This document shows, piece by piece, positions 388 to 62,196 of a stretch of 64,000 nucleotides of DNA. Under the pieces are notes generated by a model. That model was not told where the DNA came from, ran no database searches, and saw only the letters and a list, made by a program, of their open reading frames with translations. Numbering within the stretch: position 1 is the stretch's first letter; each line of letters begins with the position of its first letter. The translations under genes were made by a program, and so were the position numbers. Origin of the DNA: a virus (taxonomy: Duplodnaviria; Heunggongvirae; Uroviricota; Caudoviricetes); IMG/VR virus record IMGVR_UViG_3300045988_161728; one strand, given 5' to 3'.

Positions 388-998
388 TGGATAATGCGAT
401 ATTAAATAGCGAACTTATAGCCATACAGGCAGGAAACATTATCGTTTATAACTATGATGGTGGTAATCGGGAATATATTTCTGCATCAACTGAATATCTT
501 GCTGTTGGCGTTGGTATTCCGGCAAATTCTTGTTTGGATGCTCCAGGCTCACATAAAGCAGGTTATGCGATTCTCCGTTCAGAGGATTTAAGTTCATGGG
601 AGTATGTGCCAGATCATCGTGGCGAAACTGTCTATAGCATTGACACTGGGAATCCCGAAGAAATCACGGTGTTGGGTGACTATCCGGAAAATACAACCAC
701 TATCGCCCCGCTAACACCATACGACAAATGGGATGGAGAGAAATGGGTGGTTGATACTGAGGCTCAACATAGTGCAGCTGTAGATGCAGCAGAAACAAAA
801 CGTCAGTCATTGATTGATACTGCGATGGATTCCATTAGTCTGATTCAGTTGAAATTACGGGCTGGACGGAAGTTGACGCAGGCAGAAACCACGCAGCTTA
901 ACTCCGTGCTAGATTATATAGACGAGCTGAACGCGATGGATTTAACCACGGCACCAGATCTCAACTGGCCTGAAAAACAACTTTCTACAGCCAGTTGA
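387..998 (+). CDS. U: Tail-fibre assembly chaperone (U/Tfa family)
   Basis: 203 aa ORF immediately downstream of and translationally coupled to an Sv cassette; size, position and C-terminal region typical of Mu/P1 U and lambda Tfa proteins. Confidence 0.7.
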   Translation: MDNAILNSELIAIQAGNIIVYNYDGGNREYISASTEYLAVGVGIPANSCLDAPGSHKAGYAILRSEDLSSWEYVPDHRGETVYSIDTGNPEEITVLGDYPENTTTIAPLTPYDKWDGEKWVVDTEAQHSAAVDAAETKRQSLIDTAMDSISLIQLKLRAGRKLTQAETTQLNSVLDYIDELNAMDLTTAPDLNWPEKQLSTAS

Positions 999-1004
999 TA
1001 TAAT

Positions 1005-1511
1005 TAATCCGCCCTCACAATATAATTAAATGCAATATTACGAGGGCGGGTTTCTAAGCCAGCAGTACCTAAATTAGCTACGGACTGTTTATATGTTTTA
1101 AAAGTTCCATAATTAGGGGCTGGCAATCCTGCATCGCTTGTGTTCCCCCATCTGATAACTCCCGTATTACCACTAGTAGCCCATGCCTCGTCAAAGTAGA
1201 AATTAATTGAGCGGTCAGTTGCTACGGTTGATTTTGACGGTAATCCGTGAGCATGATCCTCCGTTGCATATCCTTGCTCGCTTAAAATAGAGCGACCAGA
1301 GTCAATCCCTCGCCCATCATCCCAACCACGGATAAACTCACCGCGTAAATCAGGTAATTTTAACGTTGGGTAAACCTTTGCCAGATTTGGGTACTTTTCA
1401 GAAGAAAATGCTGCACCATTGCATTTCAGCCACCCCGTTGGAGGTGTGGCTGAGGGCCATGGAACAGGTACACCAACGGGCAGCGCCGAGCCTTCTCCTA
1501 AACCAACGTTT
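1005..1511 (-). CDS. Startless tail-fibre Sv cassette (C)
   Basis: 168 codons with no ATG, beginning NVGLGEGSALPVGVPVPWP...LKCNGAAFSSEKYPNLAKVYPT and ending ETRPRNIAFNYIVRAD; same conserved ends as the other Sv cassettes, so it is a silent alternative fibre tip. Confidence 0.5.
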
Positions 1512-3866: not shown

Positions 3867-4301
3867 TTATGCTGTAGTCGAGTTTATGGCCATAACTGCG
3901 GTATATGTTTTGCCCACATACAGCGAGTCTTCTTGGACACAAATAATGGCGATTGGCTTATTCTCGTTATCCAGAACAACCAGAGTGTTGAATGGGTAGT
4001 TTTTCCCTTCCTGCAACTGACTTTGATCAAGGTCCATTCGGACAGTAATTATCCCGCCTGAGTAGGTTGGGACGAGGTTGATGGTGCAAAATTGACTGGT
4101 CAGTTCTGCCAGATCGAAAGCCTTTGGCAGTTCTCCAATCTCATAAGTGCCATCTCCTTTCTTAGTAACCAGTGAACTGGTACCGAAAACGGCCTTGCTG
4201 ATTAAAAATCGAGAGCCTTTGTTAATGGACGATTCAGCGCGCCGCTGATAGTAATAGTCCAACAACTGACTCTTATAGAGGTTTGTTGAGACGTCAGACA
4301 T
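3867..4301 (-). CDS. R: Tail-fibre associated structural protein (P1 R position)
   Basis: 144 aa ORF immediately upstream of S in the same operon; assignment is positional. Confidence 0.45.
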   Translation of the reverse strand: MSDVSTNLYKSQLLDYYYQRRAESSINKGSRFLISKAVFGTSSLVTKKGDGTYEIGELPKAFDLAELTSQFCTINLVPTYSGGIITVRMDLDQSQLQEGKNYPFNTLVVLDNENKPIAIICVQEDSLYVGKTYTAVMAINSTTA

Positions 4302-4379
4302 GATTTTCCCTAATCAATGTTGTGAAGCCTCATTGTAAGATAAGTAACTTGTCACCCCGCCCTGCGGACGGGGTGATTG

Positions 4380-24102: not shown

Positions 24103-24237
24103 TTTACTCTTCCTTAAACACAAGGCACTTGTGTGAATCCCTTTTCGGAAGAGATTTTATTGAAAGTCACTTGTTGACTTTCTCGTGACAAGCAATTTTT
24201 TTATTTTTTTTCGGGAGTAGGGGAGGAAGGTAAAATC

Positions 24238-28287: not shown

Positions 28288-28689
28288 TTAGTTGTCGTTT
28301 TCCGTACCTACTTCTTCGATCAACAAACTACTTGTATAGATGCGTAACGTATCACCTTTGTAGAGGAATTGATAACCAACACCTCCTATGGCAGGGAGGT
28401 CGGGGAACATTTCAGAAGCAACCCCAGAGCAAATCACGGCGATACAGTCATCCCGCTGTACATCCTTACGCTCTGTACTCAAAGTTTGCTCTTCCCCGAT
28501 TGCCTTTGTCATCTCCTCATCTTCGTACGCAACAGGGATATATTCAATCGCATCAGGCGTTTTGATACCCAGTTCTTCAGCAATCTCGAACGCCTGTTTA
28601 AATTGATCTGACCCAGGATATCCAACGGTAATACTCTCAATTTCGAACAAAGAAGTAGCGTTGTTTATTTCTTGTTTAACCGCAAACAT
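28288..28689 (-). CDS. Hypothetical protein (P1 UpfA position)
   Basis: 133 aa acidic ORF next to oriR. Confidence 0.45.
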   Translation of the reverse strand: MFAVKQEINNATSLFEIESITVGYPGSDQFKQAFEIAEELGIKTPDAIEYIPVAYEDEEMTKAIGEEQTLSTERKDVQRDDCIAVICSGVASEMFPDLPAIGGVGYQFLYKGDTLRIYTSSLLIEEVGTENDN

Positions 28690-28759: not shown

Positions 28760-29119
28760 TTAAATCTGCTCGCTGAGCTTTTGCTTCAGCAGATAACCTT
28801 CCAGCGGCCAGATTTTCTCAATGGCGTTCTTACGGGCCACCTTACGGCCAATCTCCGCGTCGAAATTTTCAGGGCTGGCACAGGCGCTTTCCCCGGTAAC
28901 AATGAATCCATTGCACAGCACCAAGACACAGATGGTCAGGCTACGCGTAGAGGGATGAACAGACAGCACCTCACGAACGCCTTCGTGCGCAGCGCGAATG
29001 CCGTCAAAAGCTGTGAAATAATGCTCTTCGGCAATCACACTCTCGATGTGATCAGGAGTCAGGCGTGGTGCTGTTTTGCCTTTGGCCAGAATCTCTTTTT
29101 CAATTTCCATATCGGACAT
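28760..29119 (-). CDS. Hypothetical protein
   Basis: 119 aa ORF, no clear RBS conflict. Confidence 0.45.
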   Translation of the reverse strand: MSDMEIEKEILAKGKTAPRLTPDHIESVIAEEHYFTAFDGIRAAHEGVREVLSVHPSTRSLTICVLVLCNGFIVTGESACASPENFDAEIGRKVARKNAIEKIWPLEGYLLKQKLSEQI

Positions 29120-29130
29120 AGTTTTTCCTT

Positions 29131-29463
29131 TTAGTTACCGCTGATAGCACGGTTGTAATCATTAACGTTGCGATTCTTCCTGTTAATCCCCTTCAGCATC
29201 GTTTCTGTATCGAGGATATACGCTGGCAGATCATCAAAATATTCACTGCTAAACTCTGGCATTCTGCACATAAATGCACTTTTGGGGGCAGGGTGGTTAA
29301 CCTTTGTCGGCGTCGGCGTTAAATTCGCTGATCGACTCCCGGAGCAACCGCTGAGTGTCAGCAGGAATGCGCTGGCGAACATTACCCGCCGCAACCAGTT
29401 GTTTCTGAACTTCAGCTTTTCGTTCCATTTGCCTGTCAGCATATTTGGCTTGTTCTGATTCAT
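29131..29463 (-). CDS. mlp: Lipoprotein, o-spanin (Rz1)-like (P1 Mlp position)
   Basis: Lipobox LTLSGC followed by Pro/Thr-rich segment; 5' part overlaps the 3' end of the upstream gene in another frame; true start probably internal (29442 or 29382). Confidence 0.5.
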   Translation of the reverse strand: MNQNKPNMLTGKWNEKLKFRNNWLRRVMFASAFLLTLSGCSGSRSANLTPTPTKVNHPAPKSAFMCRMPEFSSEYFDDLPAYILDTETMLKGINRKNRNVNDYNRAISGN

Positions 29464-29719
29464 TTTTCACTTCCTGGCTGTGAAAATGTTGCTCTGCTTT
29501 GTTCATCGTCTCAATGGTCTGGTTAAGATCCATTATTGACTTATCACGTTCCTTAACAGCCTGATCAAGACTGCCAATTTTCTCCATGGCTTGCTTTAGC
29601 TGATGACGTTCCCATGCAAACCCAGCACCAACAAGTGCGCAAATCAGAACAAGAACACCAGTAGCAGCAAGTTTCTCCTTCAAAGACAAAGCTGTTTTTA
29701 ACGTAGAAAAGAATGACAT
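29297..29719 (-). CDS. Type II membrane protein, i-spanin (Rz)-like (P1 PpfA position)
   Basis: Start ATG 29719 with AGGAGG RBS (ORF track starts at 29746); N-terminal TM helix then charged coiled-coil-like periplasmic domain, about 140 aa. Confidence 0.5.
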   Translation of the reverse strand: MSFFSTLKTALSLKEKLAATGVLVLICALVGAGFAWERHQLKQAMEKIGSLDQAVKERDKSIMDLNQTIETMNKAEQHFHSQEVKNESEQAKYADRQMERKAEVQKQLVAAGNVRQRIPADTQRLLRESISEFNADADKG

Positions 29720-29758
29720 GTCTTCCTCCTGAAGAAAAATTATCAATGAAGTCCTTTG

Positions 29759-30547
29759 TTACTGTGCCGCTTTGTTTAATTCATCAAGAACAGAATCAGG
29801 AACCAAAGCGGCAACTGCGCTGGCTGTGCTGACCTTATTTGCTGATGCTTCCGCAAGCGCGGTACCGATAGCATGGTTATAAGCAGTTATGGCTACGTTG
29901 GCGCTTTCATTCGCTCGTTCATACTGCTGTTGTAACGCAGTTGTGGGCGCTGTTGTCTGGTTGAAAACAACCCCAAACTGTTCAGTTGCTACTTTCAGAG
30001 ATTCAATTTGCTCTTCTGTTAGTGCTGGTGGGGGAGTGGCAGTGCCGCCGCCTGAACCAGAGCCTGACGAGCTTCCTGAGCCAGTGTTAAGGGTCTGGTT
30101 AATCTCCCCCATAGCAGCGACTAAACTTGATGTATTAAGCGCGTTTACAGCGTCCTCAAGCGATTTAGTAATAGTCACATCACCAATGGCAATAGAGATC
30201 GGCAGTTCTGATACTTCTCGCTCATTAGCACGACAGTAAACATCCCAACCAATATCGAGTTGAAGGAGCATTGACAGATCAGCATAACCAGCCAACAGGT
30301 CCGCGTGCTTAGTTGCCAGTTCTCCAATGTTCGTTAAGCCGGTTGTGGTTGTTCTGATCGTTGAAATATAGCTGGTAATAGTGTCGGGATAGACAATTGT
30401 ATCCAGAATTAATCCGGTCAATTCTTCTGCAAGCAGTTTTGCTGTGTTAGCACTGTTTCGTGCCGATGTTATGGCACCAGGTGTTTTCATCCCACCGGCG
30501 GCGGCCAATTTTTTATATGCGGATAACTGGTAGTCTTTTTCCAGCAT
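29759..30547 (-). CDS. Two-domain protein with Gly/Ser linker (P1 UpfB position)
   Basis: Start MLEKDY at 30547 (ORF track 30604); GSGSSSGSGSGGG linker between domains; directly downstream of the PAAR gene. Confidence 0.45.
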   Translation of the reverse strand: MLEKDYQLSAYKKLAAAGGMKTPGAITSARNSANTAKLLAEELTGLILDTIVYPDTITSYISTIRTTTTGLTNIGELATKHADLLAGYADLSMLLQLDIGWDVYCRANEREVSELPISIAIGDVTITKSLEDAVNALNTSSLVAAMGEINQTLNTGSGSSSGSGSGGGTATPPPALTEEQIESLKVATEQFGVVFNQTTAPTTALQQQYERANESANVAITAYNHAIGTALAEASANKVSTASAVAALVPDSVLDELNKAAQ

Positions 30548-30555
30548 GATATCTC

Positions 30556-30840
30556 CTAACTTACCTGAACCAGGCCGTCTCCGGACGCTACGGTAGATCC
30601 GCATGAAACAGGGTCACCAACGCATACGATCCCTTTACCATTGACGGTAAACCATGCCCTGGTTGATATAGCTTGCCCACCGTGCGTACTGTTTCCATCG
30701 GTATGCTGTGCATATTGCTTACCATCAACTAACACTTCGACTCCGTTGACTTTAAGTAGTGGTTCACTCTCTACAGGAGGCCTGGATGGGAATCCTCCGT
30801 GCCCCGAACAAATGCTGTCTTTTGTTGCAATACTTGCCAC
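30556..30840 (-). CDS. PAAR-repeat-like spike-tip protein
   Basis: 94 aa with spaced Cys/His (CSGHGG, HTDG, THGG, VCVGDPVSCGS) and VNG/V.V.G beta-strand pattern characteristic of PAAR domains. Confidence 0.55.
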   Translation of the reverse strand: MASIATKDSICSGHGGFPSRPPVESEPLLKVNGVEVLVDGKQYAQHTDGNSTHGGQAISTRAWFTVNGKGIVCVGDPVSCGSTVASGDGLVQVS

Positions 30841-30920
30841 GTCATCACCAATTATTTGCTCTGGTTTTCGTTATTTTAACTTAGGTTACTTGTGGTCTAT
30901 ATGGTGTTAACTATTGCATG

Positions 30921-30937
30921 ATTGCTCTAATAAATAT
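30921..30937 (+). promoter_or_regulatory. C1-operator-like site
   Basis: ATTGCTCTAATAAATAT upstream of the uhr/hrdC-like genes. Confidence 0.55.
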
Positions 30938-31008: not shown

Positions 31009-31293
31009 ATGCAGATGGAGCTAATAAGCCGCAAAGAGTTCGATAGCCGTGTAACCAGCGGTGAACTCGACAACTTGCAGGCTATCAAGGTGAAAGAAGG
31101 CTTTTGCCTCATTGGGAATCAGAGCGGAACAAATCGCGTTTTTATGCTTCGCCGTACGGATTTGAAGCCATTTGTCTGGAAGAACGAAATTGGTCCCAGC
31201 TCATACGCTCAAACTAGGGGGTGCCTCAACCTGGCCTTTTTCTACAAAAACGAGCTTTCTGTGGTTGATATTCAAGGGTTACAACATGTTTAA
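31009..31293 (+). CDS. Hypothetical protein upstream of hrdC
   Basis: Start at 31009 with GGAG RBS; ORF track 30937..31293. Confidence 0.35.
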
Positions 31294-32191
31294 GCACTGG
31301 AAAAACATTACTATTTATAAACTTTCTCGTGAAGCGGATCTGACCGACTTAGAAGATAAAAAGAAAATGATCCTTTTCACGCCATGCGGTAGTCAGGATA
31401 TGGCCAAGTTCGGTTTTGTATCTCCATTTGGTGATAATTCCGAAGTTATCGCTATGCATGGAAATGGTTTTATCCTTGTTGAAGCAAAGCGCGAAACAAA
31501 AATCCTTCCCCCGCCGGTTATCCAGCGAGCTATTCAAGAAAAAATTGAAAAACTCGAGCAAGAACAAGCGCGTAAACTGAAGAAAACAGAGAAGGACTCC
31601 CTGAAAGACGAAGTTCTGCATTCTCTTCTGCCACGGGCTTTTTCAAAGTTTTCTGTTATCCAGGCGATCTACGACGGTTCAACTAAACGTATCTATATCA
31701 ATGCCAGCGCGCGGCAGGCAGAGGATATGCTCGCGCTTATGCGTAAATCTCTGGGTTCTCTTCCTGTTGTTCCCCTAAGTGTTGAAAATCCCATTGAATT
31801 AACGCTGACCGACTGGGTACGTGATGGTAGTGCTCCACAGGGATTTCAAATGGGGGATGCGGCAGAACTTAAGGCAGTGCTTGAGGATGGCGGTATTGCC
31901 CGAGTGAAAAAGCAGGATTTGGGAAGCGATGAAATTTCCACACACCTGGAAGCTGGCAAGCTCGTTACTAAGTTGGCACTCGACTGGCAGAACCGCATTA
32001 AATTTACACTGGACCATAACTTCAGCCTTACCAGCGTCAAATTTGCGGATGAATTGCTTGAGCAGAACTCTGATATTGATAGTGAAGATGTTGCGCAGCG
32101 ACTGGACGCAGATTTCTTCCTGTTGACCAGTGAAATTTCGTGCCTGGTTGATGCTCTGGTAAATGCCCTTGGTGGAGAGGCTAAGCAGTGA
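31286..32191 (+). CDS. hrdC: RdgC-family recombination-associated protein
   Basis: Starts [13 protein letters not shown], which aligns with the RdgC N-terminus (MLWFKNLMVYRL); about 302 aa as in RdgC; the ORF track's upstream start at 31172 is likely read-through. Confidence 0.75.
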
Positions 32192-60916: not shown

Positions 60917-61002
60917 TTGATTGCTTGCCCGTTCCGGGCCTTTTGACATGTGACTTTCGTTACCCTCGCGTCAAAAAGAGTTTTATACGAAAGGAAGCAT
61001 AA

Positions 61003-62196
61003 GTGACCTGGGACGATCACAAGAAGAATTTTGCTCGCCTGGCGCGAGATGGTGGTTACACCATCGCACAATATGCCGCCGAGTTTAATCTCAACCCAAA
61101 CACCGCACGTCGTTATCTCCGTGCATTCAAAGAAGACACCGGAACAGCGGACAGCCGTAAGCCAAATAAGCCTGTCAGAAAACCACTAAAAAGCATGATC
61201 ATTGATCACGCTAATGATCAACGTGCAGGTGATCACATTGTGGCTGAAATGGCTGAAAAACAAAGAGTTAATGCTGTTGTCAGTGCCGCAGTCGAGAACG
61301 CGAAGCGCCAGAATAAGCGCATAAATGATCGTTCTGATGATCATGACGTGATCACCCGCGCCCACCGGACCTTACGTGATCGCCTGGAACGCGACACCCT
61401 GGATGATGATGGTGAACGCTTTGAATTCGAAGCTGGCGATTACCTGATAGATAACGTTGAAGCGCGGAAGGCCGCGCGCGCTATGTTGCGTCGGTCCGGG
61501 GCCGATGTTCTGGAAACCACTCTTCTGGAAAAGTCTCTTTCTCATCTCCTTATGCTGGAGAACGCCAGGGATACGTGTATTCGCCTGGTGCAGGAAATGC
61601 GCGATCAGCAAAAAGACGATGATGAAGGTACTCCGCCTGAATACCGTATCGCGAGCATGCTAAACAGCTGTTCCGCGCAGATAAGCAGCCTGATCAACAC
61701 CATTTACAGCATCCGGAATAACTATCGAAAAGAAAGCCGGGAGGCGGAAAAGCACGCTTTGTCTATGGGGCAAGCTGGCATTGTTAAGCTGGCATACGAA
61801 CGAAAGCGTGAAAATAACTGGTCAGTGCTGGAAGCGGCTGAATTCATCGAGGCGCATGGAGGAAAAGTGCCGCCCCTGATGCTGGAGCAAATCAAAGCCG
61901 ATCTGCGTGCTCCTAAGACCAATACCGATGATGAGGAAAACCAAACAGCATCTGGCGCTCCATCACTTGAAGATCTGGATAAAATCGCGCGAGAACGGGC
62001 CGCCAGCCGCCGCGCTGATGCGGCATTGTGGATTGAGCATCGTAGAGAAGAAATTGCCGATATCGTCGATACAGGTGGTTATGGTGATGTCGATGCGGAA
62101 GGCATATCAAACGAAGCATGGCTTGAACAGGATCTGGACGAAGACGAGGAGGAAGACGAAGAAGTTACCCGCAAACTGTACGGGGATGATGATTAA
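61003..62196 (+). CDS. pacA: Terminase small subunit PacA
   Basis: 397 aa; contains the pac hexamer clusters; acidic C-terminus; GTG start with AAGGAAG RBS. Confidence 0.85.
61195..61356. other. pac: pac packaging site
   Basis: Four TGATCA hexamers (61196..61236) and three TGATC(A/G) hexamers (61326..61355) flanking an about 90-bp core. Confidence 0.75.

Follow-up and report, generated by a model that had tools for sequence, protein, structure and literature searches.

UpfC and UpfB of a P1-like phage-plasmid: a PAAR-type spike tip and its probable tip-bound structural partner

The closest described counterparts of the two genes analysed here are upfC and upfB of phage P1, and the feature is already known from this phage. 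UpfC has been likened to T4 gp5.4 since the annotation of the P1 genome, where a note in the P1 record gives 31% identity to T4 ORF 5.4. The tip assignment dates from 2022, when Gonzales et al. obtained an HHpred value of 99.4% for UpfC against T4 gp5.4 and proposed the role of a spike tip (PMC9024508). UpfC has since been solved as part of the P1 baseplate. A preprint from 2025 models it as the needle tip on the gp5 trimer (bioRxiv 2025.07.21.665459), and the P1 cryo-EM study published in PLoS Pathogens in January 2026 built it as a single chain, a monomer, seated on that trimer (PMC12810830). The placement of UpfC on gp5 has been modelled in these two independent cryo-EM studies of P1. The second of them also interprets a 'tripod' at the tip as three trimers of UpfB, and its authors speculate that gp5, UpfC and UpfB make up the membrane-piercing apparatus (PMC12810830).

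T4 gp5.4 (PDB 4ku0, 5iv5) resembles UpfC in several ways: with about 95 aa it likewise consists of one domain, which forms a PAAR cone, and it shares the His/His/His/Cys pattern. Both proteins cap a spike with a trimeric beta-helix, and plaques form without either of them. However, the two proteins share only about 30% identity, T4 has neither an UpfB-like partner gene nor a tripod, and T4 gp5 carries a lysozyme domain which P1 gp5 lacks. According to a preprint on the T4 spike tip, BLAST detects no pair of related proteins in the tails of T4 and P1 other than gp5.4 and UpfC, and gp5.4 matters for fitness and on hosts with truncated LPS. A third comparison is with the PAAR proteins of type VI secretion systems (T6SS), which occur as PAAR-toxin fusions or together with DUF2169/Tvp accessories. 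As appears to be the case at the present locus, PAAR is found there on a spike trimer and the product of a neighbouring gene binds the tip non-covalently.

The DNA analysed here (the window) is a stretch of 64,000 nucleotides which, judged from its sequence, belongs to a P1-like phage-plasmid. The 3.2 kb around upfC and upfB show 96-98% nucleotide identity to P1, P7, RCS47, SJ46 and other P1-like phage-plasmids. Both ORFs proposed in the initial annotation are found at the coordinates given there, on the minus strand, and correspond to P1_gp066 (upfC) and P1_gp065 (upfB), which occupy the matching place in the P1 reference record. In that record ppfA, mlp and upfA come next on the same strand, and then oriR/repA; upfC and upfB lie opposite the divergent uhr-hrdC-dmt operon, and the C1 operator Op68 is annotated in the intergenic region. 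The window retains both this gene order and the operator, the Op68/Odmt equivalent (30921..30937, plus strand) being identical to the annotated P1 stretch and placed between upfC and uhr-hrdC-dmt. The genes, their place and their operon are the same as in P1, with ppfA, mlp, uhr, hrdC, dmt and repA as shared neighbours, and repA/oriR is reached about 1.5-2.5 kb downstream of the upfC-upfB operon.

The next operon gene after upfB is ppfA (29297..29719, minus strand), onto which the P1 ppfA coordinates map and which codes for an Rz-like inner-membrane spanin (PHROG 89 'Rz-like spanin', 1.5e-25). It is overlapped in another frame by mlp (29131..29463, minus strand), which codes for an Rz1-like lipoprotein spanin with the lipobox LTLSGC (PHROG 30284, 3e-76). 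Downstream of the spanins the window carries a gene for a gp49/66-family protein, which is additional to P1, and an upfA which is divergent from that of P1. Neither an Rfam family nor a DNA tandem repeat was found in the upfC-upfB region, and an antisense ORF within upfB (29889..30239, plus strand) is without support.

The 94-aa ORF (30556..30840, minus strand, GTG start) had been proposed to code for a PAAR spike-sharpening domain, and this assignment stands: by sequence, the protein is UpfC, a spike tip of the PAAR type. It is identical in 93 of its 94 residues to the solved chain 9vyi_A, deposited as 'UpfC'. It matches PHROG 281 'PAAR motif' (E=2e-30), the NCBIfam model T6SS_PAAR_dom (positions 4-93 of 94 aligned, E=4.5e-9), T4 gp5.4 (5iv5_ZA, E=8.6e-8; also 4ku0_D) and, more weakly, the Vibrio PAAR protein 4jiv_D (E=3.7e-4). 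The match to Pfam PAAR_motif (PF05488; E=8.5e-6, 26.4 bits) is just below the cutoff of 27 bits, and the 36 bits reached with the NCBIfam model are far below its equivalog cutoff of 124 bits. Residues H14, H46, H53 and C80 are identical in the alignments with T4 gp5.4 and 9f4b_BA, and the same His/His/His/Cys pattern recurs in the PAAR neighbours of distant UpfB homologues. In PAAR proteins these positions are taken as metal ligands. The gene is under purifying selection (dN/dS of about 0.03 among P1-like alleles), and its product is a minimal PAAR protein of 94 aa.

By its near-identity to the solved P1 chain, UpfC adopts the cone-shaped PAAR fold and is seated on the end of the beta-helix of a trimeric spike. 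The gpV-like central spike which the initial annotation had recognised at 39807..40439 (minus strand) is P1 gp5: residues 1-210 match 9vzk_q 'Gp5' over the full length (1.1e-136), and there is a weak OB-domain match to Pfam Phage_base_V (4.2e-4). Gene 5 lies about 9 kb from upfC-upfB. Gene 6, the baseplate hub (40432..41448, minus strand), is directly upstream of it, as assigned from P1 gene order and the literature, and its homologues directly precede gp5 homologues in related loci. A spike without an apex of its own is recognised by the lack of a C-terminal HxH motif (PMC12407873), and no such motif is found near the C-terminus in the gp5 translation.

For the second gene, the observation could be confirmed with a corrected start. 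The ORF as annotated in P1, which is also the long ORF of the window (29759..30604, 281 aa), overlaps upfC by 49 nt. All UpfB homologues in a collection of 5.8 billion proteins begin at MLEKDYQL, which corresponds to residue 20 of the 281-aa ORF, and PHROG 1559 aligns to residues 20-281 (E=2.2e-137). The ATG at residue 20 is positioned 8 nt past the TAG of upfC and is preceded by AGGAG. Because homologue starts, the span of PHROG 1559 and the AGGAG with its 8-nt gap agree, the true start is most likely 57 nt (19 codons) inside the annotated ORF, giving an upfB of 262 aa at 29759..30547 (minus strand), and the reference annotation of P1 upfB probably starts 19 codons too early. At the junction (30545..30561, minus strand; AGTTAGGAGATATCATG) the stop codon TAG overlaps the AGGAG Shine-Dalgarno sequence, and this 8-nt junction with its AGGAG is identical in 79 of 84 P1-like loci. 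In more distant relatives, TGATG stop-start overlaps are found between the PAAR gene and upfB. Translation of upfB is most likely coupled to that of upfC.

The initial annotation had described the second gene product as two domains joined by a Gly/Ser linker, and this agrees with what we find. The linker GSGSSSGSGSGGG (codons at 30044..30082, minus strand) comprises UpfB residues 156-168 as read from the sequence. Modelling by AlphaFold2 with 15 homologues gave a confident, all-helical structure (mean pLDDT 82, pTM 0.77), with an N-terminal bundle up to about residue 157, a segment with pLDDT below 50 at residues 158-169 and then a C-terminal helical hairpin. The linker is the sole long stretch of the model with pLDDT below 50, and its length differs between UpfB homologues. 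UpfB is 91% identical to P1 UpfB, with most substitutions of this different allele in the C-terminal domain. upfB is under purifying selection among P1-like alleles (dN/dS of about 0.25-0.3), and the C-terminal domain has evolved faster than the N-terminal domain (dN 0.090 versus 0.023).

A profile search of a library of 1.84 billion proteins gave 80 UpfB clusters at 50% identity, nearly all with full-length members of 240-265 aa. By tblastn, UpfB is found on 754 plasmid records, mainly from Escherichia and Salmonella, whereas tblastn with a distant UpfB homologue against a phage collection gave no match. There is neither a Pfam model for the family nor an UpfB chain in PDB; PDB sequence matches are to artificial GS linkers of other proteins, and the Gly/Ser linker accounts for the Pfam matches to Serglycin and DUF7432 (E of about 0.1-0.2), which are noise. 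A comparison of the model with BFVD returned nothing at E<1e-3, with a weak resemblance to DUF7217 (TM 0.3-0.46). In the literature on Salmonella and Klebsiella phages, mentions of 'UpfB' concern the phage name UPF_BP2 and not the protein.

It had also been proposed that a PAAR tip with a linked partner resembles the arrangement used by T6SS effectors, and that UpfB might be cargo on the tip, injected as an effector or as an anti-defence payload. We consider this very unlikely. Sequence and fold searches with UpfB revealed no toxin, enzyme or known anti-defence domain and no known fold, and DUF2169, DUF4123 and DUF1795 domains are absent from it. UpfC lacks an extension domain that could bear cargo and, as mentioned, scores below the equivalog cutoff. 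Unlike in T6SS PAAR-effector modules, no toxin or enzymatic effector is fused to the PAAR protein or encoded beside it, and no immunity gene or adaptor (DUF4123, DUF1795, DUF2169) is adjacent, the following genes being those for the spanins, the gp49/66-family protein and UpfA. T6SS genes (VgrG, Hcp, Tss) were not found in the surroundings, the context being that of a P1-like phage-plasmid and its virion. The reported position at the very tip would make UpfB the first protein to be delivered, but work on P2 indicates that the spikes of contractile phages end in the periplasm, away from cytoplasmic defences (PMC12407873), and a symmetric tripod of nine copies has the look of a structural component (PMC12810830). 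UpfB is an acidic, soluble and helical protein (pI 4.5), which would suit a payload, and its flexible linker and faster-evolving C-terminal domain are compatible with a host-facing part.

Deletion data bear on the same proposal. In-frame deletions of upfA, upfB and upfC of P1 are viable and show 'normal restriction' on EcoA, EcoB and EcoK hosts (PMC9024508, Table S3), which argues against an anti-defence function of UpfB. The Dar system was intact in these tests, so that a redundant function might have been hidden, and the hosts covered type I systems only (PMC9024508); some payload functions would thus be compatible with the result. Plaquing is unaffected by the upfC deletion (PMC9024508), and upfB, upfC, ppfA and mlp were non-essential in a genome-wide CRISPRi study (PMC10695390). 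Being non-essential for plaques is a property that upfB shares with accessory payloads. Neither upfC nor upfB is needed for plaques on laboratory E. coli; no phenotype has been reported for either deletion, and a role in penetration is what we infer for the two proteins.

That the partner is linked to the PAAR tip is in line with the report of UpfB attached to the tip in P1 virions (PMC12810830). The trimers on the tip derive from density and the fit of an AlphaFold3 prediction into a medium-resolution map, the only kind of map obtained, and were not built de novo (PMC12810830). We infer from this model that an UpfB tripod probably surrounds the tip and is held there non-covalently. The LC-MS/MS list of P1 virion proteins does not include UpfB, although the hub protein gp6, with 3 copies, was detected (PMC9024508), and this absence sits awkwardly with nine copies per virion. 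The fit to a medium-resolution map and the absence from this list would both suit an UpfB which is not a virion protein at all but a late cytoplasmic factor, such as a chaperone of the PAAR tip or a lysis accessory, the tripod density then representing something else. Several other low-copy baseplate proteins were likewise missed in the same analysis, however, namely gp5, gp26, PmgA and UpfC (PMC9024508), and the published AlphaFold3 trimer does fit the tip density (PMC12810830). T6SS tips are known to have adjacent non-secreted chaperones such as DUF2169/Tvp, but canonical PAAR proteins bind the spike without a chaperone (PMC11883445). Lysis genes next to UpfB homologues, described below, would also agree with a lysis accessory; on the other hand, the UpfB translation contains no signal peptide, lipobox or transmembrane segment, as an envelope-acting lysis protein would need. 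Given also the tight coupling to the PAAR gene in other lineages, we regard a non-virion role as improbable.

To place the P1 arrangement among relatives, the genomic context of six divergent UpfB lineages was compared, with neighbours checked by phmmer; a scan of genome contigs for related loci gave four loci. In five of the six lineages, an UpfC homologue is encoded directly upstream of the UpfB homologue, down to identities of about 20-30%. In L005 and L006/L007, the gp6 and gp5 homologues are encoded on the same strand, about 5 kb upstream, while gp6, gp5, PAAR and UpfB are contiguous within the tail module in L010/L011. The exception is L012, where gp6, gp5 and PAAR are followed by a lysis cassette (holin-like protein, endolysin and two lipoproteins) and only then by the UpfB homologue. 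In all the lineages examined, the UpfB homologue adjoins genes for a spanin, an endolysin or a lipoprotein, and it is this neighbourhood, together with the position of the L012 homologue, which could be taken to favour a lysis-related factor. The lasting coupling of the PAAR and UpfB genes points to a physical partnership of their products and supports it independently of the structural data.

As judged from gene order, the ancestral arrangement is hub, spike, tip and UpfB, and the site in P1, 9 kb from gp5 and near oriR, is a derived rearrangement. The initial annotation had regarded the pair as a separate operon near oriR, of the kind used by T6SS effectors. Its location away from gp5 and gp6 is correct; but since relatives keep the order hub, spike, PAAR and UpfB, with upfB inside the tail module, the location in P1 represents a rearrangement rather than a cargo-style island, which also speaks against an injected payload. 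The pair is conserved in P1, and the function documented there is related to the one which had been proposed, not a different one.

No promoter is annotated for upfC in the P1 record. A consensus for late promoters was derived from two annotated P1 promoters, LPlyz (AAGTGATTT-N4-TATCCT) and LP23, and from the window itself, and the window was searched for AAGTNACTT-N4-TANNNT (AAGTNACTTN4TANNNT) with at most one mismatch. This gave 8 matches, one of which is the annotated LP23, compared to 1.09 expected, and none of 100 shuffles reached 8. Four of the matches are intergenic and located 31-37 nt upstream of the start of an ORF on the same strand, among them LP23 and a site ahead of upfC. The latter (30873..30891, minus strand) reads AAGTAACCT-N4-TAAAAT and is positioned 32 nt 5' of the GTG, which tentatively suggests an Lpa-type late promoter serving upfC-upfB-ppfA-mlp. 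The box of this element is better than that of P1, which is degenerate: most P1 relatives have the weaker AAATAACCT, and P1 and most relatives read AAATAA(C/T)CT there. Late expression would suit a tip protein and spanins. A sigma-70-like site (30851..30879) was set aside, as transcription would start within the upfC ribosome-binding site.

Taken together, we think it highly probable that the two genes form a spike-tip module of a P1-like contractile-tailed phage-plasmid, with UpfB as a tip-bound structural accessory. This reading ranks well above an injected payload and a non-virion factor; the mechanism given here for UpfB is a proposal. One UpfC cone closes off the gp5 beta-helix trimer at its blunt end and sharpens the membrane-piercing spike, as shown by near-identity to the solved P1 chain. 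UpfB, composed of an N-terminal helical bundle, the flexible Gly/Ser linker and the C-terminal hairpin, would form a tripod around the tip. Both proteins and the Rz/Rz1 spanins would be made from one leftward operon, possibly from the Lpa-type late promoter. Upon contraction of the sheath, gp6, gp5, UpfC and UpfB would be driven into the envelope ahead of the rest of the virion. UpfB would most likely be accessory to envelope penetration or to stabilisation of the tip, and neither an enzyme nor an anti-defence effector.

A variant can be envisaged in which UpfB is a detachable, non-covalently bound tip cargo, comparable in a phage to the cargo that T6SS PAAR proteins carry, released at the start of infection into the periplasm or the outer membrane and conditioning entry on particular envelopes. 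Such envelopes might differ in the LPS core, bear capsules or belong to hosts whose resident prophages exclude the phage, and on laboratory K-12 the role would escape notice. Contact with the host would be made by the faster-evolving C-terminal hairpin on its flexible linker. Nothing found here points specifically to such a cargo, and we hold this variant to be unlikely.

In summary, the interpretation given in the initial annotation is partly supported: a PAAR tip, its linked two-domain partner and the cognate spike are all present, whereas an injected effector is not supported, given the lack of an effector domain, an immunity gene and a PAAR extension and the normal restriction of the deletions. 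What is added to the knowledge from P1 is the conserved PAAR-UpfB coupling, which provides independent support for an assignment of UpfB that is weakly supported experimentally, and the ancestral order, which explains the odd location of the genes in P1. The UpfB family is present on hundreds of clinical Enterobacteriaceae phage-plasmids.

The start of upfB, the gene downstream of upfC (which encodes the PAAR-type spike tip), is probably placed 19 codons too early in the P1 reference annotation (NC_005856, 63982..64827), where upfB has 281 aa and overlaps upfC by 49 nt. In the window, the corresponding, probably over-extended 5′ stretch is found at 30548..30604. An AGGAG-N5-ATG immediately 3′ of the upfC stop codon is the probable start. 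Together with the homologues and the PHROG profile, this sequence context argues for a product of 262 aa.

A similar case is hrdC (31172..32191, + strand; RdgC family, E=8.6e-98), for which the mechanical ORF has a TTG start, codes for 339 aa and overlaps the gene uhr. As P1 hrdC has only 301 aa and the Pfam RdgC match starts at residue 43, an internal ATG is probably the true start. Start assignment also concerns an ORF encountered when the window was searched for the late-promoter box, (AC)AAGTNACTT-N4-TANNNT. Away from upfC, three matches are located 31-37 nt before an ORF start: 4332..4350 (− strand) upstream of a 144-aa ORF (3867..4301), 24154..24172 (− strand) upstream of gene 23, and 60948..60966 (+ strand) upstream of a 397-aa ORF (61003..62196). 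A further match (42883..42901, − strand) is found within ORF 42222..42950, the true start of which may lie further downstream.

Megablast coverage is 97% for vB_EcoM-813R1 and 73% for P1, where the match shows a gap. This gap is due to a 119-aa gene of the Phage_gp49_66 family (28760..29119, − strand; PF13876, E=1e-33), which lies between mlp and oriR and is missing from P1, and to a UpfA-like gene (28288..28689, − strand), the product of which is only 54% identical to P1 UpfA.

Published data on UpfB in the virion do not fit together easily. UpfB has been reported at nine copies per virion, the tripod on the spike tip being assigned by an AlphaFold3 fit to medium-resolution density (PMC12810830). 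However, UpfB is absent from a virion LC-MS/MS proteome in which the three-copy baseplate hub gp6 was detected (PMC9024508, Table S4).

The overlapped Rz/Rz1-type spanin pair ppfA and mlp (29131..29746, − strand) is encoded alongside the spike-tip genes, whereas holin and endolysin are encoded at a distant site in P1; mlp, which carries the lipobox LTLSGC, overlaps the 3′ part of ppfA in a second frame. Spanin, endolysin or lipoprotein genes adjoin UpfB homologues in all lineages examined. Among the relatives, L008 is a small-genome element which also carries ParAB and Rep3; a TacA-like antitoxin and a TacT-like GNAT acetyltransferase (435..1246) are encoded directly upstream of its PAAR and UpfB genes. 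In distant UpfB-bearing elements, hub, spike and PAAR genes are kept as a single block, in L010/L011 (4660..8756) together with the UpfB gene and likewise in L012 (2964..8711); an IS605-family OrfB occurs within the L012 tail module. Because chromosomal-type genes (tctB/tctC, isocitrate/isopropylmalate dehydrogenase family) flank L010/L011, this element is probably not a plasmid but an integrated prophage.
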